From a virus, in IMG/VR virus record IMGVR_UViG_3300028388_001285, positions 1 through 64,000 of that record: a stretch of DNA of 64,000 nucleotides; one strand, 5' to 3'. Under the pieces are notes generated by a model. It was not told the DNA's origin. It worked only from the letters and a program-made list of their open reading frames with translations, and did not search any database. This document shows, in pieces, positions 3,306-58,100 of the stretch. Both the position numbers and the translations under genes were made by a program. Position 1 is the stretch's first letter; the number at the start of each line of letters is the position of its first letter.

Positions 3306-3402
3306 ATTTATGTGGTCTGCGGCATCTACATATGATGAGATTGTATATAGTGTTTGCAATGACTGCGATAAGAAATCGACTGGAATAATGATTGCAACGT
3401 AA
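3253..3402 (+). CDS. small Zn-ribbon protein
   Basis: MSKKTVFTQTCYCERC...CNDC, 49 aa; TAA overlaps the next ATG. Confidence 0.5.
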   Translation: MSKKTVFTQTCYCERCDKFMWSAASTYDEIVYSVCNDCDKKSTGIMIAT

Positions 3403-3680
3403 TGAGAATATTATTCACTGATAATCATAACGGACATTGTTATAAGAATCCTGAAGCCACTCTAGTGAGGGTGATAGCTCCAATGAGTAAGAAGCAGCTG
3501 AAGGAAAGTTTTAAGGAGATTGAAAACAAGCAACCTGGAGTAAGCCATATTGGAGGTTCATGACTATATATACTAAGGCACAGTGGTGTTAAGTACAATG
3601 TACTTAGGAGAGCTTGGGAAGAGGACTTCAAAAAGAAGGACTGAGATATGAAATATGAACTAATAACCGGCAATTATTAG
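3402..3680 (+). CDS. hypothetical protein (2 in-frame TGA)
   Basis: 92-aa ORF only under TGA=Trp; fills a gap, starts at a TAATG overlap, ends TAG. Confidence 0.6.
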
Positions 3681-3696
3681 GAACTTTGAGATAAAT

Positions 3697-3710
3697 GTTG
3701 TATATTTGTA
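3697..3710 (+). promoter_or_regulatory. Bacteroidota-type -7 promoter box TAnnTTTG
   Basis: TATATTTG at 3701-3708 in an intergenic gap just upstream of an ATG; the -33 element is not clearly placed. Confidence 0.45.
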
Positions 3711-3862
3711 ATAACATGGAGCGAGAAGTATACCAGAGATTAGCTGGGTTAATAATATTAGGCGGCAGCACAATTATAGCATTGTGAATAACCGCACTAG
3801 AACTAGCCGTAAGATTTTAGTTGGGGCTCCCAGCACACAGCCGCAGAAGGTCATCTTTGAGA

Positions 3863-4363
3863 GTGGTGAATGTTAGGAGAGAGGAAAAAGAAGAAAACTC
3901 AACTTGGTGAATATTGGCAATGGTAATAATGGGACTTGTGTTGGCAGCACGAGGCTGGACTTCTAACCCCGAATATGATAGCTCAATAGCCATAAATTCA
4001 AAGAGACTTGCGAAGATTGAAAAGAAGGAGGAGGAGACGAAGAACTCAGAACAGTATGTACTCTTGGCCGTACGCGACGGAAGCTATCCTTGCTACAATT
4101 GTCCCACCGGTACAATTAATCTCATCGAAGGAGATGTCTTTAAGTATGGGTGAACAACTAAAGGTAAGGCTAGGTACTCTTGATCAACCCTCGCGCAAGC
4201 GGGACTGGTTTATCTCCCGCAGCACAGAGGTACGGCTCAGGAATGTATGGTCCTAGAAATGAAGCGGATAATATTTTATCCTGCGGAGATTAGGTCTAAA
4301 GCAGTATTCGAACGGAATAATATAGTGCTACTGAGACCGCCAGGAAATAAACGAGACATATAA
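3863..4363 (+). CDS. membrane-anchored URI-fold (GIY-YIG-like) polymorphic-toxin-type nuclease domain protein (3 in-frame TGA)
   Basis: Read-through of TGA 3908, 4151 and 4181 gives an N-terminal TM helix plus QYVLLAVRDGSYP...GDVFKYG.TT...RYS...E...RPPGNKRD, resembling Bacteroidota Rhs toxin C-termini; start codon uncertain (3821-3866). Confidence 0.6.
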
Positions 4364-4632
4364 TGAGGAAGCTGAAGATGGTAACCCACTATGAGCTGAA
4401 TGAAATTATGGATAAGCTCATAGGAACTACAGTAGAATTCCACATAACCGGCACAGATTTTTTTACGTCAGGTATGGTAGATGTATCTACAAATGGAAAT
4501 GTGGTATGAGTACATAATACTGACAGGTTTAGATACTACTATGATTTAGAGAGTTTATTAACACATGATACTTGGTATCAAGTAAAAGAAGAAGAGGATG
4601 ATTTTAGCGATAACAGAAATAGCGCTGCGTAA
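4363..4632 (+). CDS. hypothetical protein (1 in-frame TGA)
   Basis: 89-aa ORF under TGA read-through; TAATG-coupled start. Confidence 0.55.
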
Positions 4633-5439: not shown

Positions 5440-5814
5440 ATGAAAGAAGCGAGGATAGTAATAGCAGGTTCAAGAACATTTAAAAACTATGATCTCTTAA
5501 AGCAGGAAGCTTTTGATTTTATCATCTATAACTCAGATGTGAAACCAGAAGAGATAGAAATAGTTTCTGGATGTGCTAGGGGTGCCGATTCTCTCGGAGA
5601 GAAATTTGCTGAAGAGATGGGCTACACTGTTAAACAATTTCCTGCTGACTGAGAAGAACACGGTAAGAAGGCTGGATTTATTAGGAATCAGCAAATGGCC
5701 GATTATGCTACACATGTAATTGCCTTCTACCAACCCGGCTCTAAAGGAACAAAGGACATGATCCGCAGAGCGTTGAAACAAGATTTAATATTAAAAGTAA
5801 TAACTTGGAATTAA
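5440..5814 (+). CDS. SLOG-superfamily (YspA/DUF2493-like) protein (1 in-frame TGA)
   Basis: IVIAGSRTF...IVSGCARGADSLGE...FPAD[TGA]EEHGKKAGFIRNQQMADYA; the family motif is FPADW..HGK.AG.IRN..M. Confidence 0.9.
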
Positions 5815-6002
5815 TGGAACAAGTAGTATTCAAACTTAACAAGAATGAGGCCAGCGCTGTAGTGCAGGTGGTGGGACAATTACCAACTAGCTCTAATGCA
5901 TGGGTACTCTACAATAAATTACTTGCTCAGTTTAACGAGCAGACGCAAGAACAGCAAGACGAATCTGAACCTGAGACAGAGGTTCAAGAAGAAAATAAAT
6001 AA
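5814..6002 (+). CDS. hypothetical protein
   Basis: ATG overlaps the TAA of the read-through SLOG gene. Confidence 0.65.
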   Translation: MEQVVFKLNKNEASAVVQVVGQLPTSSNAWVLYNKLLAQFNEQTQEQQDESEPETEVQEENK

Positions 6003-6075
6003 ACGTGAAAAATAAAGTTCCAGTTTTCAGATTGGTAGGAAGTGATGATCGGGGCTAAACACGATTAACCCTAAC

Positions 6076-6453
6076 ATGGGGGAGATACTATCCGAGGCTG
6101 AAATTAGACTACTAGCGGAATTTATTCTTTTACCAGAGAAGTTCTCTTACCAACGGTTTTCGAAACATGCGAAAGATAAAGTGCTGACACAGTGTAGAGA
6201 GCATGGTTGGGACATCACGAGAGTGAATCTCAACAACAAATTGTACTCTATGATTGGTAAGGGTATTCTTAGGAGAGATGACGATTCCGTGATCTATATT
6301 CAGACTTCCGTATTAGAAGGGGCTTTAGCAGTAGTTAGAGGTTGTACTGAAAGCGGGAGTCACGATTTAGTAATAAGATTTTCAATAGATGATACGAAAG
6401 AAGATAGACGGCCTGATACAGCTGACAGCGGAAGCTCTGGAGATGGAGCCTAA
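6076..6453 (+). CDS. putative winged-HTH DNA-binding protein
   Basis: helical pattern ending NLNNKLYSMIGKGILRRD. Confidence 0.5.
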   Translation: MGEILSEAEIRLLAEFILLPEKFSYQRFSKHAKDKVLTQCREHGWDITRVNLNNKLYSMIGKGILRRDDDSVIYIQTSVLEGALAVVRGCTESGSHDLVIRFSIDDTKEDRRPDTADSGSSGDGA

Positions 6454-6730
6454 GGTTGTCAAACACGCCGTTAAATCACAATTTAAATTTATAAGGGACT
6501 GAACGAATGACCCCAAAAAAGCTTCAATATTACTTCATGAGTTGGGTACCTTCTATCTTAACAAAGATGCTATCTACAATAGGATTGTTCGGAAAGCTAT
6601 ACCACAGATTAGACGCTATGGTAAGGAAGATTGGGCAGTCGACTATTTATGTCACTTACGCAAATTGCGTAGATTATCTCTGGACTATCATCGGAGCAAG
6701 AAGAAAAAGAACAAGACAAAAAATGGATAA
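6389..6730 (+). CDS. HU/IHF-like DNA-binding protein (1 in-frame TGA at 6500)
   Basis: MIRKKIDGLIQLTAEALEMEPKVVKHAVKSQFKFIRD[TGA]TNDPKKASILLHELGTFYLN, an HU-like helix-helix-strand pattern with L..LGTF. Confidence 0.6.
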
Positions 6731-7118
6731 GGAGTTTTCGTTTATAATCCAAGGACAGAAAGGAATCCTTTTGCAGTTGGATGAACTCAAAGGGAACTAT
6801 GACCCAGACTCACCCATCTATGTACCTAACTTTAAGGACGGGCATACTGATGGAGGCAAGATCGCAGCTAAAATCGACAACATGGAGAAATATGCGACGA
6901 TTGCTACTGTACTACAGATTTCTGATAAAGCCGCAGAGCTTATGAAGGAAGATGGCATGGACATTCAAATAGGTGATCGGGTCTATGTTGATCCCGTCGC
7001 AAAACATGCGCGGAATTGGTTTATTCCAGACAGGCATTACACAGTCAAAAATTATACTGGTATGCTACTGGTACACCCTAATAATATACAAGCTAGAGAA
7101 AAAAGAGAAAATGGCTAA
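6723..7118 (+). CDS. GroES-like co-chaperonin
   Basis: ILLQL...SPIYVP...ATVLQIS...IQIGDRVYV...LLVHPNNIQA mirrors the GroES strand pattern; true start is probably ATG 6723, not 6507. Confidence 0.55.
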   Translation: MDKEFSFIIQGQKGILLQLDELKGNYDPDSPIYVPNFKDGHTDGGKIAAKIDNMEKYATIATVLQISDKAAELMKEDGMDIQIGDRVYVDPVAKHARNWFIPDRHYTVKNYTGMLLVHPNNIQAREKRENG

Positions 7119-7437
7119 CAAAATTAATTTTAACAAAATTTCTAAAGCAGATCTCACCAAGGAGTACAAAGCATTAGCATCCAGTAGTATGGAAATCCAA
7201 GCTAAGTATGGAGCACTTATGAGTGAGAACAAAGATTTGAAAGACAAAATCCAAGGCGTACTTGCATGTATCCTGGAACTTATTGGATCTTTTGAAACAC
7301 CAGTGAAAGTAAAATGGTGGTGGTTTATTACTAACCTTGGAAAGATTCAGCGTACAATCGAATGTATTGGTGCCGCTGTAAAGTCCAATCCTAGTCTTAG
7401 AGCTACAGCGCTGGGCGTCGAATTAAAAAAGAAGTAA
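7111..7437 (+). CDS. coiled-coil hypothetical protein
   Basis: MANKINFNK start overlaps the upstream stop. Confidence 0.65.
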   Translation: MANKINFNKISKADLTKEYKALASSSMEIQAKYGALMSENKDLKDKIQGVLACILELIGSFETPVKVKWWWFITNLGKIQRTIECIGAAVKSNPSLRATALGVELKKK

Positions 7438-7438
7438 A

Positions 7439-7957
7439 GTGAAACTGAAGGATATTACCGTAAAGAACGTAAGAAATTTTTTAGAAGGTAATTACAAGAT
7501 GCGCGTACAAGGATACAAACATCTTCCTAAGCATCATCAAGAGCAAGTGGAGTATCGTGCCTTACTTTGCGCTGACTGTTTAAAAGCAGGAAAGTGTAAG
7601 GTATGTGGGTGCGGCACTCCCGGACTCTTCTTCGCACCTAATAAGGTGGACTCCAAAAAAAGATGGGGTAAGATGATGGATGCAACTGCTTGGGAAGTCT
7701 TCAAGAAATCTAACGAGTACCGACAAAAAGTATTAGATGCAATTAATAGAGACACTCCAAACATGGTTACCGATAATACTCCCAAGCCTGACATTCCTAG
7801 CGGGGATGTGGATAGCATGGTTATTGTGCAACCAAAGAGTGAAGAAGGTCCACTCCAAATACGACAAGTGGTGGTACACAGCTCTCAAGGAAGCGGAAAA
7901 AGCGGAGGTTCCGAAAGTGGAACTGAACATGGAGAAGAAGTCAGTAGTAATGCATAA
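7439..7957 (+). CDS. Zn-binding hypothetical protein
   Basis: RALLCADC...KCKVCGC...KKRWG motif. Confidence 0.65.
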   Translation: MKLKDITVKNVRNFLEGNYKMRVQGYKHLPKHHQEQVEYRALLCADCLKAGKCKVCGCGTPGLFFAPNKVDSKKRWGKMMDATAWEVFKKSNEYRQKVLDAINRDTPNMVTDNTPKPDIPSGDVDSMVIVQPKSEEGPLQIRQVVVHSSQGSGKSGGSESGTEHGEEVSSNA

Positions 7958-7969
7958 AACGTACGATTA

Positions 7970-8470
7970 ATGAATGTACTAACAACATTTGATTTAGATG
8001 TAGACTTCTTTGAGGCTAACGCGCAATTGAAGATTGCTTTTAATGATGTAATTAAAACCAAAGGTGAGGAAGCTTCACAGTTCATGTGGTCAATCGCACT
8101 GATGGTCCACCCAGATTCCAAGTACCATAACACTAGTACAAGCTTTAGACAAAAGTTAATTAGAGATGAGTACTTCGCTATAGACTGGGAAGATGAATTC
8201 ACTATTGAAACAATTGATAAATTTAAACATCTTTGCCTAACTAAACAACAGCAGTTTCTCATAGCTTGAGAAAACAAGTTGGAAGAGCGAGATCGTTTTA
8301 TCGAATCGGAACCATACTCAGAAGACAACTATGAAATGCTAGAAAAGCTCATGGGTAATTCTGATAAAATGTGGGAAAGGTACAAGAAATGTTTAAAAGA
8401 TGTTGAGGATGAAAAAGCACACATTAGTGGTGGAGCGATGGAATCACTCGGCGAACAAAATATTATATAA
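7970..8470 (+). CDS. conserved crAss-like phage protein (1 in-frame TGA at 8267)
   Basis: ORFs 7970-8269 and 8279-8470 are in frame: FLIA[TGA]ENKLEERDRFI...GGAMESLGE. Confidence 0.75.
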
Positions 8471-8471
8471 T

Positions 8472-9221
8472 ATGTTTAAGAACTTATCGTTGATATTTGG
8501 AGGATTGTTAATCCTTTTGATAGCAACCACAATATTCCATAAGTGTCAGTCAGACCGTCACATTGACGATGTCTCAACGGCTTTGGAATTCGCGGAACAG
8601 AAAGCTCATGTGAATGACTCTTTGTTACAAGTAAACAATGAACAGTGGGATATAGAAGAAGCTAAGTTGCTCGATTCTATTATGACACTGAACGATGAAT
8701 TAGAAGCTCGGCCCCAGATCATTAGATGGGCATACGGGAAATCTTATAAAGACGAATACAGAATTGCACAAGATTCATTAGAGCACTACAAGGCAATTGC
8801 GGATTTGTATGATACAATAGTACCAAAATTACAGAACGAACTTATAGCGACAGCAGATGCTTTGTTTGCAGCTGAGTGTGCTAGAGATTCGGCAGTACAA
8901 GCATTGTGGGAATATACCCCAGATGACTATGTATTTAAAAATGATTCAGTATCATTCCATTTAACTTACGAAGCTGATACAACTAGTTTGTATGATCCAG
9001 AAGTAGGGCATATGGTAGAGACCCGGCAAGTTACACCGGTACTCACATATGAGATCACAGTAAAACCAAAATTTTATATTAAGGAATTACGTAAACGCAA
9101 GTTATTCAAACGAGGCATTTACGAGATAGGTGTGATATCAAATAATCCAGGAGTATTATTTGAAGACAATACAGCACCAGTAAGGTTTAAAAAAGGCACT
9201 CTAGTATGGAATCGAAAATAA
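8472..9221 (+). CDS. membrane-anchored coiled-coil protein, putative spanin
   Basis: N-terminal TM helix, long coiled coil and beta-rich C-terminus. Confidence 0.5.
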   Translation: MFKNLSLIFGGLLILLIATTIFHKCQSDRHIDDVSTALEFAEQKAHVNDSLLQVNNEQWDIEEAKLLDSIMTLNDELEARPQIIRWAYGKSYKDEYRIAQDSLEHYKAIADLYDTIVPKLQNELIATADALFAAECARDSAVQALWEYTPDDYVFKNDSVSFHLTYEADTTSLYDPEVGHMVETRQVTPVLTYEITVKPKFYIKELRKRKLFKRGIYEIGVISNNPGVLFEDNTAPVRFKKGTLVWNRK

Positions 9222-9272
9222 GAAAAGACGGAGACTGTGACAGTTGTATACTTAGTGAATATTGCAACGGCA

Positions 9273-9351
9273 GTTGTTAGGAAATCGCCTTAGGATCGGT
9301 AGTGGTCCAGTGTTTCTGGGCTGCTATCGGCTAAGGTAAAACACTACAACT
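9273..9351 (+). other. long irregular intergenic RNA hairpin
   Basis: nested pairings AGTTGT/ACAACT, GCCTTAG/CTAAGGT and GTAGTGGTCCAG/CTGGGCTGCTAT. Confidence 0.55.
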
Positions 9352-9446
9352 ATGGGCAAACAAATTTCAGTGAAACCGAAGAAGATAGCTAAGAGAGAAG
9401 GCAAGAAAAAGGAAGTTAAGAAAGTAACACCTAGAAGGAATTAGAT

Positions 9447-9665
9447 ATGGCTAAGATGACAATAGTGAGAGAAAGAAAACCCCTCACAAAGCCTCTTATA
9501 CGAGAGGCTCTGGGGGAGGTTGGCATACGGTTAACCGAGGGTAATCCATACACGTACATGGCCGATTGGGTGTCCCTAGTTGACAGGATGTATAACCTAT
9601 TTGAAGGCGCTCAAATAAACACATTTAGAGTAGAAGAGGATGAGAAAAAAGATAAAAGCAAATAA
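9447..9665 (+). CDS. hypothetical protein
   Basis: 72-aa ORF. Confidence 0.6.
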   Translation: MAKMTIVRERKPLTKPLIREALGEVGIRLTEGNPYTYMADWVSLVDRMYNLFEGAQINTFRVEEDEKKDKSK

Positions 9666-9912
9666 TTTTAAACTTGAAAGGGTAGAGCAATTATACGATG
9701 ATGAGGCAACGTTAGATTATATGGGAGAGAGTTGGGCTAAAGATGCACCTCACGAAGAAGAAAAACCGAAGCCACAAACCGCATATGTTACGGAGGTAAA
9801 TGTATCGGGAGAAACTGCTGCTATCATAGTGAACTTGTTGAAAAACGCTGGCGTAAACTTTGGTTGGAACCCAGCACAGAATTTACATATTTCCTCCCTA
9901 ACTGAAGTATAG
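9640..9912 (+). CDS. hypothetical protein
   Basis: 90-aa ORF. Confidence 0.6.
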   Translation: MRKKIKANNFKLERVEQLYDDEATLDYMGESWAKDAPHEEEKPKPQTAYVTEVNVSGETAAIIVNLLKNAGVNFGWNPAQNLHISSLTEV

Positions 9913-9915
9913 ATT

Positions 9916-10320
9916 ATGAGGTATTTAATCAGTTTATTCATACTAACATTTGCAGTGAGCCTTAGTGCTCAGAAGGACGATATAGTCGCAGCATTTAATA
10001 TAAGCGATGCCGTCCATATCCATAAAGGAGAACATATCAACATTGACCCGAAACCGGAGTCTATAGTATTTCACTGGTACTCAGTACGTTTCAACTATAG
10101 AGTTGAGAACTCTCCCAAAAGAGTGGAGAAAGTTATTGAAGGTTGTTGGGTACGTAACCCACAGTACAAAGGTACTAAGAGGTGGAAGTGCAAGCAGGTC
10201 AAATACAAGGTAAAGAATGGGAATATTATTGAAAAGATACGTGGAACTAAAGGTAAGTTTTTATACAAAATAAAACCGGCCCGTACGATAACCCCCTATA
10301 AACTAAACTACTATAACTAA
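9916..10320 (+). CDS. secreted protein with SPI signal peptide
   Basis: MRYLISLFILTFAVSLSA|Q, a Bacteroidota-style signal peptide. Confidence 0.7.
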   Translation: MRYLISLFILTFAVSLSAQKDDIVAAFNISDAVHIHKGEHINIDPKPESIVFHWYSVRFNYRVENSPKRVEKVIEGCWVRNPQYKGTKRWKCKQVKYKVKNGNIIEKIRGTKGKFLYKIKPARTITPYKLNYYN

Positions 10321-10619
10321 AAAGCACCCCATGTTTATAAGTATGGAAGAGGCGAAGGCTAAAGAGAAGTGGGAATACGAAACGGAGAAAAAACTCATGG
10401 AAGATCCAGAGTATCGTAAGATGTACTACAGAATAATGAGTGGATATTATGCAGGAAAAGCAAAAGAACTCAGAGAAAAAGAAGGGATTAGGCAAGAGAA
10501 CTAACTCTGGTAAATGGAAGAGACCCTCTGCAACCTTAACTGAAGAGCAGAGTAAAGATTTAAAGAAACAAGTAGATAAGATACCACTCTTCGAAGATGG
10601 TAACTAAAGAAATGTATAT

Positions 10620-10718
10620 CTAGCTGTAGAGCGCAGCTGTTCACGGCACTTACCCTGGTATAAAGGTAAGTATAAATGTGAAAGTTCCAGATGGAGAGAG
10701 CTCAGGTGATGCAGTTAG
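10620..10718 (+). other. long irregular RNA hairpin directly upstream of the tRNA
   Basis: nested stems CTAGCTGTA/TGCAGTTAG, GAGC/GCTC, TTCAC/GTGAA and ACTTACC/GGTAAGT. Confidence 0.55.
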
Positions 10719-10730
10719 ATAAACAAAGAA

Positions 10731-10823
10731 GTGCGGTTAGACCGGGAAGGGCTCCGGGGCTGTCTTCAAAACAGTGTGGTCGGTCCAAACGACTTCAGAA
10801 GGGTTCGAATCCTTTGCCGCATG
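10731..10823 (+). tRNA. opal-decoding tRNA, anticodon UCA, long variable arm
   Basis: acceptor GTGCGGT/GCCGCAT, D stem CCGG/CCGG, anticodon arm GCTGT-CTTCAAA-ACAGT (TCA at 10766-10768), variable stem GGTCG/CGACT, T arm AAGGG-TTCGAAT-CCTTT, discriminator G followed by CTA. Confidence 0.9.
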
Positions 10824-10913
10824 CTATGAATTACAAAGAAGTAGGCACAATAGCAGAGCATGAAACAATGAAGATAGTTTTGAAGAATACATGGACGAGA
10901 TAATAAATTAATT

Positions 10914-11237
10914 ATGGGAAGCGGAAGGGTGGAAGGTATTAAGTTCGATGAGTGTGGAAACGATCCTAGAATGGTCGAAGAGTTTATGAAGAACCGACAT
11001 TTAACGGAGGTACGAAGCAAATTATTCAAAGACCAAGTTATTCTAGGCACTAGTTGTTTTCATATATCAAATGGTGGAGAGGTAACGTACGTACCACCAA
11101 ATGAATGGCCCGACTCCACTGTTACGACAGAGAGGGTATCCATAGAAGACATGATAGAAATATTTGGAGACATACTTACTGATAGTCAAAAAAAGTCGTT
11201 AAGCAAATGGAACACAGAAAAGAAAAATGGACGATAG
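10914..11237 (+). CDS. hypothetical protein
   Basis: 107-aa ORF. Confidence 0.6.
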   Translation: MGSGRVEGIKFDECGNDPRMVEEFMKNRHLTEVRSKLFKDQVILGTSCFHISNGGEVTYVPPNEWPDSTVTTERVSIEDMIEIFGDILTDSQKKSLSKWNTEKKNGR

Positions 11238-11503
11238 ATAGAAATTGGGTGCAGGTAGGAGATAGATTGAAAGACTCTAATGGAGCAGAATACTATGTTT
11301 TAGAAGTTGAGCAAGACAGGAGCGACTTAAACAAACACGAAATTACTACTGGACTAGTAGGCAATGTTGCAGTAACTGCGAAAGAAATAGAAGAAAACTT
11401 GGTCCCACAACCTTTTAATTTTGAGAAGCATTGGGCCCAACAATTTTATCAAATGGGTTTTAGCGACGCTAAGGCTCAAATATATGAATTAACAGGATTA
11501 TAA
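11207..11503 (+). CDS. hypothetical protein
   Basis: 98-aa ORF. Confidence 0.55.
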   Translation: MEHRKEKWTIDRNWVQVGDRLKDSNGAEYYVLEVEQDRSDLNKHEITTGLVGNVAVTAKEIEENLVPQPFNFEKHWAQQFYQMGFSDAKAQIYELTGL

Positions 11504-11666
11504 TTATGCTCTGGAGTTACAACGAAACAGGATTAAACAGTTATAGTACAGCTTTGTTCGACACTGTAAATCCGTACAACACAAAATTATTTAACGATAC
11601 TGAGACCGATGGAAACCTTGGTCAATCAATTACAAAATACTCAACTAGTTTATATAATTTAAGCTA

Positions 11667-11885
11667 ATGAAACGACTAGATCACATAGATGTAGGATTTT
11701 ACGTAAACAGTCAGCCTGGAGATCCATTCTACGAATTTACTATCAGTAGGAAACTTGTAGAAGAAATACACAAAGACATGATTGGCGACACCTCAGGTAT
11801 CATTATGCGTGAAGTTTGTAATATGATAGACAAACTAATACGTGAAGGATACATGGTCGGAGTCGATGAAGAGACGGTTATATAA
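11667..11885 (+). CDS. hypothetical protein
   Basis: 72-aa ORF. Confidence 0.6.
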   Translation: MKRLDHIDVGFYVNSQPGDPFYEFTISRKLVEEIHKDMIGDTSGIIMREVCNMIDKLIREGYMVGVDEETVI

Positions 11886-11896
11886 TAACCAAAGAA

Positions 11897-12222
11897 GGGC
11901 GTGACGTGGCATCGACATGTGCGAGGAAGGATAAGCGAGAGATACACAACAACAAAAGGCAATTATTACATTGACCAGTTGAAAGAAGCTGTAGCAGCTT
12001 TGGAACAACTCTGGAATGAGCGCACCAGACCAAGAAAAGTGCTCACTGTGGTACAACATTACTACGCATAGAAGGTTTGTAGTTTCCTAATGAGGACTTC
12101 ACGTCCACAATAAAAGAACTACTGGTGGAGTTTGGCTGACGAAGGTTGGCCCCAATTTTCATCTCGTTTGAGTTTATTTGGAACGTATATGGACCTGGGT
12201 TCGACACCCAGCACGTCCACTA
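11897..12222 (+). ncRNA. ssrA: tmRNA (transfer-messenger RNA)
   Basis: 5' GGGCGTG pairs with 3' CACGTCC, giving G3.U70 and A73 (Ala identity); GG..TCGAC 5' motif; P2 ATGTGCG/CGTATAT; GGAC followed by T arm CTGGG-TTCGACA-CCCAG; internal tag ORF 11958-12071. Confidence 0.88.
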
Positions 12223-12305
12223 AATTAGATTAATATGTATTTGATAGGATGGCTCATCGTCGGATTGTATATCGGCAATTGTTTGGTGAGTAAAAATTAG
12301 AGAAG

Positions 12306-12755
12306 ATGACAATAGACAATAGGATTGAACTGCTGAATAAAGTTCGTACAGGGTTAAATATGATGTTAGACGACCTGAGCGAGTTAGGGTACCAACCGCA
12401 CACAAGTTTCGGCACCATTAGTACTAAGCTTAAGGAAGCTAAGTTCTGGTTGAATGACACGTATGTCGAACTCCAGAAAGAGAGGTTGAATGTTGAGTCG
12501 GCTCCAGTAGAAGATTCAGGTGAAGTCTTAGAACTCGGTGGAACTCCTAACGACTCCGAAAAGACTATCAATAACCACTTTGTTGACATGGTGAATGCAA
12601 CGGCCAAGGAAGAGGGAACTCAGTTGGAGCTACCACATGGAACCATAGATGTTATAGGTGATAGGGAGGAAGAGAAAGAGGATAAGTTCGACGTTCAAAA
12701 GTTTGAAGCGGATTTAAACAAGTATTTAAAAGAATTACTAAATTTTAAAATGTAA
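12306..12755 (+). CDS. hypothetical acidic protein
   Basis: 149-aa ORF directly upstream of groEL. Confidence 0.7.
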
Positions 12756-12761
12756 TAGACA

Positions 12762-14438
12762 ATGAAGAAAGATATAACTTTCCATAACAAAGCCCGCACT
12801 GGGCTGATCAACGGAATCAAAGTTATTGCCAATGCTGTAGGCGCAACGTTAGGCCCGAAAGGGAGGAATGTAGTTATCGAGAAATCATACGGTGCTCCAC
12901 ATGTTACTAAAGACGGAGTTACAGTTGCTGGGAGTGTTGTACTTGAAGATGCTGTAGAAAATTTAGGAGCTCAAATCCTTAAGCAAGCGGCAGCTAAAAC
13001 TGTCAAAGAGGCAGGAGATGGTACTACTACTTCTATAGTGTTGGCGCAGAAATTGGTAGAAGAGGCACATAGACAGATATCTAATGGTGCAAACCCAATT
13101 GATATCAAGCGTGGTATGGAGCAAGCCAGCAAAGAGGTAGTAAAGAAACTGCAAGAATACTCTGTACCAGTGAACGACGATTTCGATAAAATTGAACAGA
13201 TAGCAACTATATCTGCTAATAATGATGTAGAGATAGGACAATTAATCAGACAAGCTTTTGAAGCTGTAGGCAAAGACGGCATCGTAGCGGTAGAAGAATC
13301 CAAGTCAGTTGACACCTTCGTGAATAAATCAGAGGGTATGCAGTTTGATCGTGGATTTATCTCCCCATATTTTGCTAATAATGCTAAAGGTACCTGCGAA
13401 TTTGAAGACCCGTATGTACTCATATACGACAAGAAGATTCGTGGTACTGGTGATATTGTACCTATACTGGAAAAGGTGGCGCAGAAACAGAAGCCCATTC
13501 TTATCATAGCCGAGGAAGTAGAAGCACAAGCTTTAACTTTGTTGGTTCTGAATAAGATGCAAAGGGGCGCACAATTTTGTGCTGTCAAAGCTCCAGCATT
13601 TGGAGACCGGAGACGTAAGGTTTTACAGGATATCGCGACCGTTACTGGTGGCACACTGATAAGTGAAACTGTTGGAAGGACTCTGGAAGATGTAACATTA
13701 GCAGATCTTGGTAGAGCTGAAAAGATTCAAATTACTAAAGATGACACGACGATTATTAGAGGCGCGGGCTCGCCAGAAGAAATTGCTCACAGAATTGAGC
13801 AAGTCAAAAACGAGATTAATACTACAGAGTCCGAGTATGAACTCAGTAAAACTAAAGAACGTCTCGCCAAGTTGGTGGGAGGTGTTGCCGTATTACACAT
13901 TGGAGCAGCCACTGAGGTCGAGTTAACTGAGAAAAAAGACCGTGTCGAAGACGCATTAAAGGCTACTCAAGCCGCACTTGAAGAAGGTATCCTTCCCGGA
14001 GCCGGTTCATCTTATATAGCGGCTGCACAAGATTATCAACCACCTAGCATTCTGAATAACAGAGATCAGTTAGCTGGAGTACGATGTTTGGAAGCAGCGT
14101 TAGAGCAACCACTACGCATCATATCCGAGAATGCAGGAAGACCTGCTGACTTGGTCCTTTCGAGAGTTAAAGAAGCTATGAGCTTAATTACTCACGATGA
14201 ATTGGAGAGTGGTGACGGTTCATATGCGGTTAAATTCAATCAAGGGTTTGACGCAAATAACGGCAGTATTGTAGATTTACGGGAACATGGGATTATAGAT
14301 CCAACTAAGGTAGTTAGAGTAGCATTGGAAAACGCAGTTAGTGTAGCCGGTATGTTGTTAATGACAGAGGTTACGGTGACTGAAAAAGAAGAACTTAATT
14401 TAGACATCCCTGGAGGAATGCCTCCACCAATGCAATAA
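12762..14438 (+). CDS. groEL: chaperonin GroEL (Cpn60)
   Basis: [52 protein letters not shown] motifs. Confidence 0.98.
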
Positions 14439-14440
14439 AA

Positions 14441-15217: not shown

Positions 15218-15223
15218 ATAACT

Positions 15224-15775
15224 ATGGGACATTTTATGAAAGATAGGGGATTATTTATGGGTCTGGAAGGAACGATTATCCGGACACTAGATAAAAAACA
15301 CCCCTTACAAAAAGACAATTGGGAATTCTTACCAGCAGTTTTAGAAGTGATAGCTTCTTACTACCGTAAAGGTTACAAGCTTTTTATAGTAAGTAACGAG
15401 AACGGATTAAGTCAAGGACTTGTCAAACCTAAGGAACTTGCAGAGAAGATTTCCGAAATTGTAGAAAACATTACTCTGTATATCTTAGCAGATAAGGCAG
15501 TCGAAAGACTCAGGACGGATGCAGTAGTTAGTAAGGTATTTGTATCTCCAAACGAGAATCATAAGTACCAGCTGCCACTGCCAACCGCAGCTTTTGAAGC
15601 TAAAGCTGAAGGAGATTTGGATTTAGAAGACTCCATCATGCTAGGAAGTACTCCACTGGATAAGCAGTTTGCAGAAGCCGCTGGAATGAAATTCAAGGAT
15701 ATTGGAAGTACTGATGCCATCAGAACGTTGAATAGCGAAATAATGGAAGTCATTTCCACTAAGGATGAAGCATAG
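15224..15775 (+). CDS. HAD-superfamily IIIA (GmhB/PNK 3'-phosphatase-like) protein with degenerate catalytic motifs
   Basis: LFMGLEGTII, WEFLPAVLE, LFIVSNENGL, SIMLGS...DKQFAEAAGMKF. Confidence 0.75.
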   Translation: MGHFMKDRGLFMGLEGTIIRTLDKKHPLQKDNWEFLPAVLEVIASYYRKGYKLFIVSNENGLSQGLVKPKELAEKISEIVENITLYILADKAVERLRTDAVVSKVFVSPNENHKYQLPLPTAAFEAKAEGDLDLEDSIMLGSTPLDKQFAEAAGMKFKDIGSTDAIRTLNSEIMEVISTKDEA

Positions 15776-48900: not shown

Positions 48901-50259
48901 CCAATTACCAGACTCTTCACCGACAAGGATAACCTATTCGCACTATCCACTAAAGCTTTATGGACTGTACCTACTAGGCCACAGACGTTGCAAACATCTG
49001 AGGGTACTATATATGTAGGTACAGGAGATGCGTTGGCACTACCGCCAAAGCGTGTAGTTTATCCTGGGTTTGCTTACGGAGGCACTAAGGATATATTGTC
49101 ACTAGTCAGTACAGAGTATGGGAGTGTATGGGCAGATAGTCTAACAGGTAAGGTATTTCATTGGCGAGGACAATTGGAAGAGATCTCTTCTAATGGTATG
49201 CGTAACTGGTTTGAAGAGAATACTAAGTCTAAGATAAAGGAACAGATGTTTGCTTTCTCTTTGGAGAACAACATACCAAGCGTACCAACTGATTTATATG
49301 GTGTAGGTCTAGTGGGCACGTATGATCCTAGATATCGAAGATACATATTAAGTTTCCGTGACTACGAGATACTTGACATGGAGAACTTCGAAGGTGGTGT
49401 GGAAGGATTTGAATCATTAACCTCTTACAATCCTAGTAAGCTATACTTTGACCTAACTGCGGGAGACTTCTTTAGGGTTAAGTACATTGCTGCTACTGGT
49501 TGGTACAAATTACCTATACCGTATTTGGATAGAAACACATTCCGTAACAGATCTTGGACGGTGTCATATTCATTTCCACACAAGGCTTGGGTGAGCTTTC
49601 ACTCATACTTACCAGCATACATGTTCAATGATGAAGATACATTCTATACTGGATTACATAATAGTCTGTGGATGTTCACACATAACTACGGGGAACATCA
49701 GAAATACTATGGAAAGAAGTACGACCATATACTAGACTTTATCGTGAATGAGCAACCAATACTGGATAAGACTTATAGTAGCCTTAAAGTAATAAGTGAT
49801 ATCAGTCGGTATGATGAGGAACACGAGAACTATATAGAGTCTCTGCTAGAGTTCTTCACATATGGTATGTTCTACAACTCCAACCAAACTAGTGGTAAGC
49901 AACAGATATTTAGGAAGGACGGTTCAAGTCCATTCTTGTCTACATATGATAACCAGAATCAAATGGTACTGGCAGAGAAAGTAGATGAGCACTGGAATAT
50001 ATCTGGGTTTAGGGATCTAGGTATAGGACATAACTCCTACCCAATATGGACAAACGCTTGGGATGAAGTACAGTCTGACTATTATATAGATAAGGTACCT
50101 AACCCGGAAGCCATTGAGACAGACAAGAGTCTGTTTAATCACGGCAGGTTTAGGGATGCTTGGCTAGGCGTACGACTATACCATGATGGTGAAGTACAAG
50201 GTAACTACAGAATAAACACTGACCTAATTAATACACTACAAAGAATATCTTATAGGTAA
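45967..50259 (+). CDS. tail stabilization / muzzle protein, about 1430 aa (in-frame TGA at 47698 and 48160)
   Basis: GMNKD...YRFALNAV, IYFTD, YMRDEVYAF, VRHHKFPD, GGDTFI, SWTVSYS...WVSFHSYLP; three ORFs fuse in frame. Confidence 0.9.
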
Positions 50260-53200: not shown

Positions 53201-53372
53201 GGCAAAAGGACAGCGCATGGGCAACTTAGCCACAGCGTTTGGTCAGACACCGATAAATTTGGGACAAGCTATGAACCGACAGGCTGCTAATCAAGAGGCT
53301 GTTAGATGGTACATGCAAGCTATTGACCCAGCATTGGCCGCGTCGATTAAGAAACAAATGAACGTAAGATAA
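50259..53372 (+). CDS. virion cargo/ejection protein with a peptidoglycan hydrolase (glucosaminidase/lysozyme-like) domain and a LysM domain
   Basis: LLFAQMRKEG...TNPMNVG...RYATSPYYE (~51490-51760); LysM YSLKEGDTPYEIA...LELN...LPVGYELI (~51885-52050); Gly/Ala-rich hydrophobic segments. Confidence 0.8.
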   Translation: MAKQKEELEYNLGGDIGTGLSAAAPMMSAIPGWGAIAGMGMSALGGFLQSRQNDAPATYQQTQSNTNPYGYVKGGTIKEVIPGIAQVKADTSAENRDGAPDSVQVNMGGTTIELAGDEVVLLNEKNKGGSLGDKLQGGFVLSNALTIPGTDKTFASAAEAPLNMLKNDENPALARQMLQNLADLNQKELIKSNNSSEYKSGGKLTNPPNNDPEYTIHALAPGQSTKEFARDALERYGVTDAEAVKALEDDLQESNQFEPWQMANRLSRNYRKSQQRIKVPKDMTKYVTMFDYLKDEKYVGGKDLPFWNLDDTRKFYTKNKPLRKPKGARAIMPGMSTSKYHVPANPAKGIPAYGNMDEFPEEALRGHIDKVLGNYKKKFKRHGKSDKLWNTDQVIAGLKALHDDTGYVAPVDLLFAQMRKEGAFNPSDGGRSKYTNPMNVGETDSKTIYKFKTPEAGFYAWGRLLYSDYLSHRTREDLYSKKEAFKNHGDNRYATSPYYEVGGYDEKNRYHIGVKQAVDQYRKMMVEDPEAAKAGKAQKKINTYSLKEGDTPYEIADKLGLDRDAFLELNRLASNKEEAKSTGLIDPSTLPVGYELIYEDDLPKAQVKISPKAQVRMTKAKPEREGSVPSNLKYFMPAGMVLGRKEGGYIGYNNGGPIEHDDPRMGDIMQHVVTALDIEDPASQEDFLNDMASRYANMWNEGQFNNWDTFLDYVSKPKDMATAQGFLNGVPGPPPSRAGLAQALAGLYGNTSAAPVAQTSAAPAPVTTPAATARTTPAATTTPAPTSFNPSTPFNPLVRTAPQITSPALAASRTAAGTAAVNNVGNMNITPSPVATPNKFGRFMENLGGAFKGGGAGTALQIAGALGQGAMALFSNQGEQAAHTVPNRYREQQYNPASQLLANQRSFSGALDMARNSASGFGQLMSRGQQSYANKMAADRTTLDRAQLMNNRYQQQYDRSTHALANQNANRMWKTDQVNKMAKGQRMGNLATAFGQTPINLGQAMNRQAANQEAVRWYMQAIDPALAASIKKQMNVR

Positions 53373-55180
53373 TGGCAAAGTATCAATATTTTAAACTACA
53401 GGCTCCACAATTTCAGCTAGAAGAGACTCCGATACAACCAATGCTACAAGCACTTGGGTACAGACAAAAGAGATTCGATGCCGCTTATGAACTAGCTGGA
53501 GACTTAGAGGACCAATACATTGACGCCCTCCCTAAAGATAGGGCTAGGGCTGACGCAATACAAGGTGGCTGGCGTAAAGAGATTGACGACATGGTCAAAA
53601 AGTATGATGGTGATTACTCTCAGATGTATAAAGATTTGGGGGGATTGAAGCGTCGTATGACTAGAGAACTCACGCCGGGAGGTGAGGGTTACGAGATAGG
53701 ACAATCTAAGGCACGCATGAAGGCAGCCTATGAAGCTGGTAAGAAGCAATTAGCTGGCGAGAAGATCACAGGTGACATGCTTAATAACTGGTACAGGTAC
53801 ACTATGGATAGCTACGGAGGCGTACAGAAAGATCCTACTACTGGAGCTTGGACTGGCATACAGCCAGAAGACATAGGAAACTATGTAGATCCGTATGAAC
53901 TTGGACTAGAAGCTGTTAAAGAACTTGTCCCAGATACATGGGAATACTCACGCACAGACGCTAGCGGCATGTACTTCTACGATAAGAGTGGTAAGGAGAA
54001 ATATTTATCACAGGATAGAATCCGAGAAGCTGTTTCCAATAGATTGTCCAGCGATGAACGCTACTGGAATATGTTACAGCAGGAAGCTAAGTGGACTGGA
54101 CGTCCAATGTCATCTGTAATGAATAGATTCCAAACCGATGTTACAGCATTCGATCCATTCGCCTACTCACAGACAGAGAGTGGTAGTGGTATGAGAGCAG
54201 ACAGCGCAGCTATATATGCTGACAAGAAAGCTATGTTAGAGAATTGGAGACCAGATAGTAGGCCAATACAACCAGCAACTCCAGCTTTCAACAACGCTAT
54301 GAATATGCCTGACTTTGGTTACACTACAGAGACTGAGGGATACGATCCCGAATTAACGGCTGAGTACTTCGGACACGGCATTAAGCAGAAAGGCACAGCT
54401 GATGACCAACTAAAAGCTTATTATGAAAAGCTAGAGGGACCATTCAAATCAGCATTCTACAAGACTATGCGGGGCGCTAAGGCAACTGAGCAAAGAGCTG
54501 CTTACGAAAGAGGAGACATGAGTCAAGAAGATTACTATGGATTCGTACAAACTAAATGGAAACAAATTGCTGATAGGGTTGGAAATTACAATAATACATT
54601 GTATAAGTATCCTAACGAGTACAAGAACGATGACCTAGATAATTGGGCAGCTATGGCTCAGAATGCTCAGTGAAGAGACATGACTGGTAAGAAGGTTAAG
54701 GTACCGAAAGAAGTTGGGGCATTAAAGAATACTGGAACTTCTAGAGCCACTAAGCTAGGGTGGTATCCACAAGGACCGATAGCAACTGGACAAGTGTTTG
54801 GTGAAATGGTCATTGATCCTAACAATCCAAAGAAACAATACATCGTAAGTAGAAGTGACAAGGTATCTGGTAACATGAAAGGTATAAATGAGTTGAGATC
54901 TCCTTACTATACGGGCAAACCTAGTGGGAAAGTACCAGCTCGTATCAAATACCAAGGTATAGATGTAGGTGTGCTAGCTAGCACTAGATTAGACAATAAC
55001 CTTAATTTTGTTGTAGACTTATATGATCCAGCTAATCCTGGCGAGGTCATAGACACCATAGAGGATGAAATGTCAGTAGGAGACTTCATGGACAACATGA
55101 ATGTAGAGGCTGTAAAGAACGTTGTAGGAAATTCAGGTTTAGGTAGTAAAGCACTATTATTCGGAGAAGAGTTAGATTAA
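53372..55180 (+). CDS. virion cargo/ejection protein (1 in-frame TGA at 54671)
   Basis: AQNAQ[TGA]RDMTG joins two ORFs; helical N-terminus like crAss cargo proteins. Confidence 0.75.
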
Positions 55181-55190
55181 ATAAATAATT

Positions 55191-58100
55191 ATGCCAGAAA
55201 TAAAAGATGTCGTAAGGGCCATTCTGCACCAAAAGGCGCAGCAGGGTTTTCTTGCTGGAAATCCTTCTGTAAGCAGAGAGGGTTTTGTAAATCTAGATAA
55301 ATTTGGGAAATATGACAAGACGCTCACACCTGGAACATGGGAGAACGTCAGAAACTTGTCCCCAAGAATGGCTCAGGAGTACCACAGAGGTACAGAGCAG
55401 CCATGAAACCACAAATATGCAAGGGGGATTGCCAACTTTGTCACAGGTACTGCTTCTAAGGTTGGAGCCACTGTAGGTTTTGCAGCCGGAGCTCTCGGAG
55501 CGCTAGCAACCGGAGAGTTAAGTACGGTCTACGATAATGCTGTAGTGGACGCCTTTACGAAGGCTGAAGCGGCTATGGAGATACCTATTTACGTAAAAAG
55601 ACAGTATGCTGAAGGCAACCTTATACATAAGATGGGTACCACTGAGTTCTGAGCTAAGGACTTAGGAGAAGGTCTTGAATTCTTGGCCAGTATGTTTATA
55701 CCAACTTACGGTATAGGACTTGCAGGTAAGGGTTTACAGGCTGTAGCTAAATCTGCTAAAGTGGCTAAGGGATTGGCTCGCGGAGAGCGCGTGCTTACTA
55801 CTGTACTGAACAGTACAGTTGAGGCAGGGTTTGAAGCCAAACATGCTAACGATGAGATTAGAGACCAGCTAGCTAGGCAGAGGGGGTACATATCATATGA
55901 TTTATTACCACCTGATATACAACAGGAGATCTCGGTTTTAGCGGGACAAGCTGCTGCTAGAACTTTCTGGGGCAATATGATTGGTCTGATGTTACCCAAC
56001 TATCTGGAGTCTGGTTGGGCTAGGAGTATTATGGGGTTTGACAAAGCAGGTTCCAATGTACGACAAGCCATACGTAAGAAAGCACTATCCCCTGACGATA
56101 TAGTTAAGGCTAAGTCCAAGTGGAAAGCAGCTACTAAGGGTCTGGTGTCCGAGGGTCTTTGGGAGGAGAACTTTCAAGAAGCTGTAGGACAGTTTGAAGC
56201 TAGATTAGCGGAAGGTAAGATCGAAAGAGAAGACTACGCTAAAGAATTAGTACGTAACCTCAGCAACAATGCATGGGGTTTTGCTCGTGCAGTACCTAAC
56301 TTACCGTTCGCACCGTTTGGTGTAGACTTCGGTATAGCTGCTAAGGCTGGCACTGAGCAAGATGCTGGTGCCACTGCTATCGCACTCGGAGCTATCATAG
56401 GTTCTGGAATGAGTACTGTGTCGCAAGCGATGGACAACGCTAGACTGCGAGAATCAGCTGAGCGTGAGAACTCACTTTGAGGTGACCTAGTGAAGTTCAA
56501 GGAAACATTAGACAAGATACTGGTTGACGATCAGAAATCTATATATAAAACTTTCGGAACTGAGACCGACGAAGAAGGTAACGAGACTCCTATCTATGTT
56601 AATCCTAAGACTGGAGCTACCGAGATTGACCCAGATAAATTACGTAATCTAGCTCTGGCTAACACTGTAGACTTAAACTTCTTTGATGAAGCTGTGTTTG
56701 CAGATGTTAACAACGATGAGTTGTGGGCCACATTCAACGATAAGATGGCGGCAGCCTCATATGGGTGGTACTTAGGATCATCCGGGATATCTAAAGAAGA
56801 TGCACAAGACTTACTTGAAGGTAGAGAAGATGCCAATGAGATACTGTCACTCATGGACTCGTTTGAAGAAGCGGAGAGGGACTCCCAGACTTCCGACGAT
56901 ATTCGTGGTGAGCAGGTCGACAAGAAATTTAAACGGTTCTTGCATAGGATCAATTACTTCCTTAATGCTCGTGGCAAGATGCTGGACGAGATGTATAGTA
57001 AGAACCCTGAGGTTATCGGTCCTATGGTGGAAGATAATCAGGCAGCTTTACAGAAGGTAACTAACGCTAGCTCTAGGAAAGCTTTGAAGAGTGAGTTTGT
57101 AGAAGCTGTAGGTGGTATAGATACTCTCAATAGAGAGGTTAAAGAACTAGAGACTGAGTTTGAAGCTGTTAAGAAGACTGACCCAGCTAAGGCTGATGAG
57201 ATAGCTAGGAAGATAAGTACTAAGAACTATCTAATGTCAGAGAGAATGCACGTAGACGGCTACGATGCAAACTTACAAGGTATAGATGCGGAGAACAACA
57301 AGGCGCTTGTAGATGAGTACTTTAGGTCTAAGCATAACAACCCTACTACCTTAGGTATGAACCCATCAATGGCGGTAAGCTACCAGTCATTACGGGATCG
57401 TAAGTACTATAGGTTAGGTAAAGCTTACATGGCCGCTAAGGATATCAACGACATAGCTGATGAATTTTTAGAGGAAAGAGATATTGATGACTTGAGTGTA
57501 GGTATTGAAGCGCTCAGAGGATCTGCTAAATATTTTAATGGTGAGAACTCTGATGTAACTGCTGCTACCGAAAAGATAAATACAGCGTTAGATGAAGAAA
57601 TAGACAAGATAAACATAGGACTTCAGGAAGTAAACGAAGCCATGTATAATTTGGCCGGTGAAAACCTGGGTGCTGAAGAGACGAAGTTAGTAGCTACGCA
57701 TCTGAAGGATACACAGAGTCAGTTACAAACACAGATGGGTCGTATTAAGTTGTTACGCGAGGAGATGTCCTCAGCGCATGAAGCTATTAATGCTACTGAC
57801 GATGAGTACGCTGCATGGAATACTGAGGATGGTCTGAAGATGGAACACTTCCGTAACCTGACTAAGAAGATATGGGCATTAGATAGCTTAGCTCTGGAAT
57901 CATTCGATAACCTTGCTAAGACTATGCAGTTCATGCAACTGTTGTTAGGAATAGAAGCTGCCTTCGAGGATAGAACTGACATCAGCGATGACCTAAAGGC
58001 AGATGTAGCTGCTGAAATACTACAGCTTAAGGAGATACTTAAAGCTTACAGAGAAGCGGCTGAAAAGAATATGCAATCCAGAGCCTCGAAACAGGTGAGA

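Follow-up and report, generated by a model that had tools for sequence, protein, structure and literature searches.

A crAss-like phage that very probably reads TGA as tryptophan and encodes its own tRNA(UCA)

Results

Gene content of the phage genome

The window analysed here (64,000 nucleotides) covers the initial 64 kb of a crAss-like phage record of 82 kb, IMGVR_UViG_3300028388_001285, with an estimated completeness of 81%. The Crassvirales signature proteins are all present, namely the large terminase (TerL, phrog_6681), the portal (phrog_6547), the major capsid protein (phrog_11589) and a tail ring protein (CrAss_Ring_1). Among the named relatives, which have Cellulophaga and Flavobacterium as hosts, Cellulophaga phage phi14:2 is the closest, with 34% TerL identity. 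The genes described below lie on the plus strand; those between 73 and 82 kb of the record are on the minus strand.

Three small genes (3402–3680, 3821–4363 and 4363–4632) with six in-frame TGAs (3561, 3642, 3908, 4151, 4181 and 4507) are followed by a SLOG/YAcAr-family gene (5440–5814; Pfam PF10686, phrog_289) with a TGA at 5650 (codon 71), whose homologs are 116–120 aa long and cover 96% of the read-through protein. A TGA-free block then extends from 5816 to 15800 (no TGA, 28 TGG) and contains a tRNA(UCA) gene, a tmRNA-like gene and GroEL (12762–14438). The TerL gene (16623–18911; residues 10–740 matched) has four TGAs within codons 39–86 (16737, 16842, 16860 and 16878) and a fifth as its last codon, at 18906, within the ATGA that it shares with the start of the portal gene and with TAG directly behind it. 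The portal gene (18905–21295; residues 5–780 matched) has TGAs near its C-terminus at 21176 and 21248, and the next gene (21364–22548) has one at 22294. A second TGA-free block (22561–27765; no TGA, 27 TGG) contains the major capsid protein gene (22580–24052).

Downstream, a fibre-like ORF of 2650 aa in code 4 (28229–36181) has TGAs at 28280, 32405 and 35579; a 172-aa gene (37915–38433) has three (37993, 38119 and 38350), and an Ig-domain gene cluster (39208–42447; Pfam Big_9) has two (39814 and 42016). The tail-region gene at 44636–45088 (TGA 44930) had been labelled IHF-like in a preliminary description of this sequence, but its only match is a PHROG of unknown function. Similarly, the gene at 45060–45977 (TGAs 45156 and 45942), previously taken for a tail tube gene, encodes instead crAss ring protein 1, a tail ring protein (PF24228, 102 bits against a cut-off of 27, residues 4–288). 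It is followed by a virion structural protein gene (45952–50259; 1435 aa in code 4, phrog_15100) with TGAs at 47698 and 48160, by a gene at 53372–55180 with a TGA at 54671, and by a giant ORF (6033 aa in code 4) that starts at 55191, continues beyond 64000 to 73292 of the record, and has TGAs at 55404, 55650 and 56478.

Reading frames continue through in-frame TGAs

The preliminary description had reported more than 30 in-frame TGAs, and we counted 34 between 3402 and 56480 in the code-4 ORFs of the plus strand. Two further sites on this strand, at 1958 and 72900, bring the total to 36. The quoted motifs were all located: FPAD[TGA] at 5650, RP[TGA]L at 16842, LE[TGA]E at 16860, KWI[TGA]NK at 44930 and E[TGA]A at 45156. 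TGG is still the majority tryptophan codon (288 TGG versus 36 TGA), and the recoding is partial, as had been proposed, since TGA accounts for 36 of the 324 Trp-type codons (11%) and whole blocks lack it.

In-frame TAA and TAG together make up approximately 4.7% of codons, giving an expected open run of approximately 20 codons past a true stop. At least 50 codons without TAA or TAG were present on both flanks of 22 of the 36 TGAs, indicating that the read-through frames extend far beyond chance. When TGA was treated as a sense codon (code 4), ORF tiling coverage of the window increased from 90% to 95%, the number of ORFs fell from 70 to 56 and their median length rose from 134 to 172 aa, in a naive tiling that also lets in spurious antisense ORFs. 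TAATG stop/start overlaps emerge after read-through at 4363, 50259 and 53372, as described previously. The internal comparison within the fibre-like ORF was also reproduced: GYGQIWVKND (from nucleotide 34001) aligns with GYGQL[TGA]AKTD (from nucleotide 35564), so that the repeat motif spans TGA 35579 while the paralogous copy has TGG at that place. Self-BLAST of the proteins of the window revealed no further paralog columns.

PHROGs and Pfam searches gave no match for the small genes at 3402–4632, nor for 15858–16604, 27772–28224 and 41734–42447; no relatives of the 37915–38433 product were found among 1.84 billion representatives, and the homolog search with the 53372–55180 product returned its own truncated form as the only match. 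Because homologs were not found, frame continuity is the one line of evidence for the 11 TGAs in these regions. In the public protein collection, the SLOG protein is a 70-aa stub and the product of the gene at 53372 has 433 of its 602 aa. As standard gene calling cuts proteins at TGA, this genome needs to be annotated with code 4.

TGA codons align with tryptophan in homologous proteins

Homologs run unbroken across the in-frame TGAs of TerL, the SLOG protein, the ring protein, the 1435-aa structural protein and the giant protein. For the structural protein, a single uninterrupted ORF of the relative L177 aligns to residues 2–1435, and giant proteins of 1852–5076 aa align without a break across residues 26–603 of the giant ORF.

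We then asked which residues these homologs have opposite TGA. Tryptophan was found in 119 of 119 homologs at 5650 (SLOG), in 74 of 84 at 16737 and in 84 of 84 at both 16860 and 16878 (TerL), in 4 of 4 at 44930, in the single homolog at 45156 (ring protein) and in 8 of 10 at 55650 (giant ORF). At 56478, two of six homologs had tryptophan and two had tyrosine. Thus, the expected enrichment is borne out, with 7 or 8 of the 16 testable sites dominated by tryptophan, five of which show little or no variation across 84–119 homologs; the background frequency of tryptophan is roughly 1–1.5%. Phenylalanine or tyrosine occupied the column at three of the remaining testable sites, namely 16842 (Phe/Tyr), 22294 (Phe in five homologs, Lys in two) and 47698 (Tyr in L177). 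The other five were variable and uninformative on the amino acid; they include the portal columns 21176 and 21248, the giant-ORF column 55404, 48160 (Ile in L177) and 39814, where a weak homolog column had proline. The TGG codons of the window face tryptophan in about half of the aligned homolog cells, indicating that TGA columns behave as TGG columns do.

Some sites nevertheless raise the question of dual use, in which most TGAs are read as tryptophan and some are leaky stops, the suppressor tRNA competing with RF2 to yield a short and an extended protein. The candidates are TGAs located where genes or domains meet (32405, 54671, 56478, 47698 and 48160) and approximately five TGAs that sit 0–14 codons ahead of TAA or TAG (1958, 3642, 18906, 21248 and 45942). 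The latter may be former stops that are read through today, or may still act as stops. Their very short tails, the position of 18906 in an ATGA overlap with TAG immediately next to it, the non-Trp columns at 21176, 21248 and 48160, and the failure to find a phage factor against RF2 in the record are all consistent with dual use. However, in the homologs one continuous protein spans 47698/48160, and likewise 56478, and the column at 56478 has tryptophan or tyrosine. We therefore regard dual use as rather unlikely, and it would supplement rather than replace the reading of TGA as tryptophan.

A tRNA with a UCA anticodon and a second hairpin

ARAGORN predicted a phage tRNA with the anticodon UCA, which reads UGA, on the plus strand at 10731–10824. 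It has a 7/5 cloverleaf with G73 and a G1.U72 pair, and its MFE fold contains five helices. The long extra arm consists of a 5-bp stem and a 7-nt loop, GUCCAAA, which is a copy of the Trp (CCA) anticodon loop. A covariance model of this two-hairpin family, built from 21 other phage tRNAs with the window's own tRNA left out, matched it with 59.7 bits (E = 2e-13). All five helices covary in the family, helix 4 at all five pairs, and the TCCAA of the extra-arm loop is invariant across 23 aligned sequences, although it was absent from the search pattern. In full-text searches of the literature, we did not come across any tRNA described as having an additional arm that resembles an anticodon arm.

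The bodies in this family are tRNA-Trp-like, with A1-U72, a G-rich acceptor stem and G73. The tRNA of the window lacks such an acceptor stem (A1-U72, G2-G5), having G1.U72 and GUGCGGU where the other two-hairpin tRNAs have A1-U72 and AGGGGC, and it further differs from them in its CCGG(G) D stem and in a CCA end that is not encoded. It shares with them the UCA anticodon arm, the second 5-bp hairpin with the loop NUCCAAA, and G73. Adjoining this tRNA, ARAGORN also identified the tmRNA-like gene (11897–12222, plus strand), which scored 45.7 bits (E = 2e-16) against Rfam tmRNA, slightly below the gathering score of 47.

An alternative reading is that TGA encodes another amino acid, namely serine, selenocysteine or glycine (code 25). 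ARAGORN labelled the tRNA SeC, and its best Rfam family match was tRNA-Sec (RF01852) with 36.2 bits; this score is under the gathering score of 47, however, and the fold is 7/5, whereas that of bacterial tRNA-Sec is 8/5. The long extra arm and G73 are determinants of SerRS (PMC9976931), so that the tRNA body by itself would predict serine. Against these readings, the TGA columns are Trp or aromatic, with serine, cysteine and glycine never dominant, and the loop of the extra arm is a replica of the Trp anticodon loop, in a covarying family of tRNA-Trp-like bodies. An amino acid other than tryptophan is therefore very improbable.

Recoding is confined to the phage and its closest relative

The closest relative, G006, comes from another record, shares 65% TerL identity with the window phage and is also recoded. 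Eleven of its in-frame TGAs align to TGG in the window and two to TGA, the latter being 16737 and 16842. G006 carries the same tRNA(UCA), likewise with G1.U72, split by a group I intron; recoding and tRNA(UCA) thus co-occur in both phages. More distant relatives (45–59% TerL identity) have no in-frame TGA, except for a single one in L005. Four large relatives (G001–G004) had only core genes in common with the window that were detectable by tblastn. An ARAGORN 'tRNA-SeC' in one of these, G003, was dropped, having a poor fold and no alignment with the tRNA of the window.

Cellulophaga and Flavobacterium use the standard code, and these hosts of the named relatives suggest a standard-code host for the window phage. 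The converse reading, in which code 4 belongs to the host and the phage simply conforms to it, would account for TGA being read as tryptophan in a record (81% complete by estimate) in which neither a release factor (PF00472) nor a TrpRS (PF00579) was found. It is, however, hard to reconcile with TGA at merely 11% of Trp-type codons and missing from whole blocks, with the phage's own UCA tRNA, with the relatives at 45–59% TerL identity that have no in-frame TGA, and with the named relatives on standard-code hosts; a code-4 host thus has very little probability. The description of the recoding as phage-imposed fits these observations, namely the phage tRNA(UCA), the confinement of recoding to the phage and its closest relative, and the Cellulophaga and Flavobacterium relatives, the latter suggesting the host code. 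The least probable alternative, which can practically be dismissed, is that the code is standard and the genes are broken, or that sequencing or assembly introduced systematic G-to-A errors (TGG to TGA): one transition does separate every Trp-aligned site from TGG, but TGAs 16737 and 16842 also occur in G006, a different record with TGAs of its own at other Trp sites, both phages have a matching UCA tRNA, errors would not spare the capsid and GroEL blocks, and 34 breaks in essential genes are incompatible with a viable phage.

Discussion

Our sequence comparisons make it very probable that this crAss-like phage uses TGA as a sense codon, at approximately 11% of Trp positions, to encode tryptophan, and the phage probably supplies the decoder, tRNA(UCA). 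The likely decoder is the tRNA at 10731–10824, encoded in a TGA-free block with the tmRNA-like gene and GroEL. In a host that presumably uses the standard code, the host TrpRS would charge this tRNA with tryptophan, and the terminase, portal, fibre, ring, giant-protein and small genes would then be translated across their TGAs by the ribosome, with TAA or TAG serving as the true stops. Dependence on tRNA(UCA) may delay or gate the expression of the TGA-bearing genes.

How a host TrpRS would recognize such a tRNA is suggested by its second hairpin. We tentatively propose, with slightly less than even confidence, a 'two-headed' tRNA, in which the UCA arm reads UGA and the second hairpin (GUCCAAA) presents a CCA anticodon loop to the host TrpRS. 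The second hairpin would let an otherwise poor TrpRS substrate, and likely SerRS substrate, be charged with tryptophan. If this is true, the two-headed design would be a widespread natural way to shift an identity element off the anticodon. In the present phages, which are of a crAss-like lineage, the two-hairpin design has a body that has diverged, and the sister phage carries it in an intron-split form.

The TGA-to-Trp recoding described here holds up, but it is of a kind already published for crAss-like and other phages. Our results add to it a crAss-like lineage close to the phages of Cellulophaga and Flavobacterium, and show the code switch arising within a small clade. The diverged two-hairpin suppressor tRNA, together with the tmRNA-like gene, should be useful for testing the Trp charging of a stop-reading tRNA in a standard-code cell.

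In code 4, used by Mycoplasma, Spiroplasma and mitochondria, a tRNA-Trp whose anticodon is UCA reads UGA as tryptophan. There, recoding concerns the whole organism, with loss of RF2 and with TGA as the predominant Trp codon, whereas TGA use in the phage is minor (11%) and patchy, and the host RF2 is presumably present. Bacterial tRNA-Sec (RF01852) resembles the phage tRNA in its UCA anticodon and long extra arm, but the phage differs in having TGA sites that align to Trp, not Cys or Sec, and an extra-arm loop whose sequence is that of a Trp anticodon loop.

Among phages, the preliminary description had noted that opal recoding is known in some crAss-like phages, and this is indeed published (PMC7886860; bioRxiv 10.1101/2021.08.26.457843). 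Recoded gut phages (Agate, Jade and others) have a 'code change module' (Borges et al., bioRxiv 10.1101/2021.08.26.457843). In comparison with these, searches of the record of the window gave neither a TrpRS nor an RF1 gene, the tRNA being accompanied instead by the tmRNA-like gene and GroEL, and the two-hairpin tRNA design is not described by Borges et al. Both systems have TGA read as tryptophan in a presumed standard-code host, close relatives with the standard code and a suppressor tRNA inside a standard-code-compatible stretch. TGA-to-Trp and TAG-to-Gln recoding were reported for crAss-like phages of the human gut (Yutin et al. 2021, PMC7886860). The present phage belongs to the same order and likewise has in-frame TGAs (Trp) in TerL, portal and other conserved genes, part-genome recoding, a suppressor tRNA and a code switch over short phylogenetic distances. 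It differs in that phi14:2 is the named relative closest to its lineage, which falls outside the gut Beta, Delta and Zeta groups, and in that its TGAs are found beyond the late genes, being present in the small genes at 3.4–5.8 kb and absent from the capsid block.

In-frame TGA codons and their distribution

With only TAA and TAG taken as stops, the plus-strand genes contain 34 in-frame TGAs between 3402 and 56480, in line with the more than 30 claimed in the preliminary description, and additional ones at 1958 and 72900. The motifs quoted there were all found in place, including the fibre repeat GYGQIWVKND (TGG), which aligns with GYGQL[TGA]AKTD, and with read-through, stop and start codons again overlap as TAATG at 4363, 50259 and 53372. 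At 22 of the 36 sites, at least 50 codons without TAA or TAG lie on either side; the raw frames carry one of these two at ~4.7% of codons, so the open run expected after a real stop is only ~20 codons. For the 11 TGAs in genes without detectable relatives, the support is frame continuity. When TGA was changed from stop to sense (code 4), as the preliminary description had proposed, naive ORF tiling of the window rose from 90% to 95% coverage, with 56 rather than 70 ORFs and a median length of 172 rather than 134 aa, but this statistic favours code 4 unduly because spurious antisense frames open as well, for example opposite GroEL. There, a 560-aa antisense ORF with six TGAs appears (12230-13912, minus strand), and several others are similar; code-4 gene calling on this genome would yield false antisense genes. 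Beyond the window, five ORFs of the minus-strand module that occupies the last 9 kb of the record (73269-81915) hold 14 in-frame TGAs in total, indicating that recoding affects both genome strands.

Some TGAs may have a dual use, as leaky stops as well as sense codons: a TAA or TAG follows five of them after 0-14 codons, and at 18906 the TGA overlaps the portal start codon as ATGA and is immediately succeeded by TAG. The end of TerL (18905-18911, ...TGA TAG) resembles an old TGA stop that is now backed by TAG.

TGA use is minor and patchy. Across all genes (1-73.3 kb) we counted 36 TGAs versus 288 TGGs, which bears out the proposal of partial recoding with TGG as the majority Trp codon. No TGA occurs at 5.8-15.8 kb, where the tRNA, a tmRNA-like gene and GroEL reside (28 TGGs), or in the capsid block at 22.6-27.8 kb (27 TGGs), and only one occurs at 56.5-73.3 kb (50 TGGs); the small genes at 3.4-5.8 kb have seven (10 TGGs). 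The first 100 codons of genes are moderately enriched (17 of 36 TGAs versus 10.6 expected, permutation p ~0.01), also in genes of more than 300 codons (7 versus 2.7 expected, p ~0.009), a 5' bias that is approximate because gene starts were taken from the longest ORFs; TerL carries four TGAs in its first 86 codons (16623-16880). A host that itself uses code 4 is unlikely, given that TGA usage is 11%, that the phage has its own tRNA and that its relatives use the standard code.

The amino acid inserted at TGA

An X was placed at each TGA in the translation, and the homolog residues opposite it were tallied. Trp, as claimed from the sequence, faced TGA 5650 of the SLOG gene in 119/119 full-length homologs of ~116-120 aa, the public gene call for this product being a 70-aa stub. 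In TerL, Trp was found in 74/84 homologs at 16737 and in 84/84 at both 16860 and 16878, whereas the column at 16842 is Phe/Tyr. The tail-region genes gave Trp in 4/4 at 44930 and 1/1 at 45156. Twelve giant proteins (1852-5076 aa) match the N-terminal region of the giant protein, several of them unbroken across all three of its TGAs, with Trp in 8/10 at 55650, two Trp and two Tyr among six at 56478, and variable residues at 55404. Aromatic columns were also seen at 22294 (Phe) and 47698 (Tyr), and those at 21176, 21248, 39814 and 48160 are variable or weakly aligned. In addition, a relative (L177) has a single unbroken ORF whose alignment with the 45952-50259 product covers residues 2-1435 and both TGAs. 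TGG codons of the window, used as a control, are opposite Trp in roughly half of the aligned cells, indicating that TGA columns act like TGG columns. Readings of TGA as Ser, Sec or Gly do not fit these data, since neither Ser nor Cys nor Gly dominates opposite TGA in any tallied homolog column. Two gene labels fared less well: 'IHF-like' was not confirmed, and the supposed tail tube gene encodes crAss ring protein 1.

Under code 4 the giant ORF runs from 55191 to 73292 of the record (plus strand, 6033 aa). Giant proteins align with the N-terminal 600 residues of its product, and some of them have helicase-type Pfam domains (PF13604, PF01443).

Recoding in related phages

The record (81,997 bases, classed linear, completeness estimate 81%), whose first 64,000 bases form the window, has plus-strand genes up to 73.3 kb, followed by the minus-strand module. 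We assign it to the crAss-like phages: TerL matches phrog_6681, portal phrog_6547 and the major capsid protein phrog_11589, and the tail ring protein scores 102 bits against Pfam CrAss_Ring_1 (cut-off 27). Among named relatives, Cellulophaga phage phi14:2 is nearest (TerL identity 34%), ahead of Flavobacterium phages and gut crAss-like phages. Searches of the record, at its estimated completeness, detected neither a release factor gene nor one for TrpRS.

The closest relative is a sister phage in a separate record (G006, loci L001 and L179; TerL identity 65%), which has its own in-frame TGAs: 11 opposite window TGGs, two opposite the window TGAs 16737 and 16842, one each opposite Tyr, Glu and Gly, and two opposite gaps. 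No in-frame TGAs were found in relatives at 45-59% TerL identity or in four large relatives (G001-G004), and a distant relative (L005) has one, opposite Tyr. This distribution places the origin of recoding within a small clade, before the window phage and its sister split. Broken genes or G-to-A errors are excluded by the common and reciprocal TGAs in the two records, which cannot come from one assembly's error, by the matching tRNA and by the TGA-free blocks.

A two-hairpin tRNA as the probable suppressor

TGA is most likely decoded by a 94-nt tRNA (10731-10824) whose anticodon is UCA. ARAGORN labelled it SeC, an identity that we rejected because its Rfam tRNA-Sec score (36.2 bits) is below threshold (47) and its fold is 7/5, not 8/5. 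The long extra arm has a 5-bp stem and the loop GUCCAAA, and so matches a Trp (CCA) anticodon arm in both shape and sequence. An IMG/VR pattern search that fixed only the UCA loop and T loop returned 76 loci, 27 with a long UCA tRNA; TCCAA is present in the extra-arm loop of 27/27, most have a tRNA-Trp-like acceptor stem, and G73 occurs in 24 of 25 distinct sequences (the window's tRNA counted). Covariation in 21 of these tRNAs extends to all five helices, including all five extra-hairpin pairs, and a covariance model built on the same 21, leaving out the window's tRNA, recovered the latter at 59.7 bits (E 2e-13).

In L001 of the sister phage, the model also picked up a copy by its 3' half; the 5' half lies ~660 nt upstream (L001 6197-6966). 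Between the halves are an ORF and a match to an Rfam group I intron (46.3 bits, E 1e-8), and the L001 suppressor tRNA is therefore intron-split in its anticodon loop. The L001 major capsid gene (15988-20696) is split into five parts, between which lie four more group I intron matches, and the window has no Rfam intron match. The two recoded phages thus combine recoding with the two-hairpin tRNA, and their standard-code relatives lack both.

Bacterial Trp identity resides in G73, the first acceptor pair and the anticodon C34 C35 A36 (PMC9976931). The change of C34 to U, together with a long arm and G73, would be expected to impair TrpRS recognition and attract SerRS; the simplest reading of the conserved CCA-loop copy in the extra arm is therefore a putative handle for TrpRS, a role that we infer from sequence.

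The suppressor tRNA is followed, 1 kb downstream, by a tmRNA-like gene (11897-12222, plus strand; Rfam tmRNA 45.7 bits, slightly below the threshold of 47; E 2e-16), and its ARAGORN-predicted tag is atypical (22 aa, not ending Ala-Ala). Speculatively, its RNA could rescue ribosomes running past UGA stops. Another relative (L062, TerL identity 38%) has a full tmRNA (643-1009, minus strand, 96 bits) and no in-frame TGA in TerL or portal; a tmRNA is therefore not strictly tied to recoding in this lineage. GroEL (12762-14438, plus strand; phrog_5725, E 9e-153) has no Trp codons, and the 149-aa gene directly before it (12306-12755), which has no family match, might encode a co-chaperonin.

Comparison with known recoded phages

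The TGA-to-Trp recoding proposed for this phage is correct and of a kind already published. Crass-like phages with suppressor tRNAs use it in part of the genome and switch over short evolutionary distances (Yutin et al. 2021, PMC7886860), and Borges et al. (bioRxiv 10.1101/2021.08.26.457843) describe it in other gut phages as well. A full-text literature search found no description of the two-hairpin tRNA design. The TGA pattern agrees with the published model of a code-change machinery that is itself encoded in the standard code and on which the TGA-containing genes depend; this phage extends the recoding to a lineage near Cellulophaga and Flavobacterium phages.
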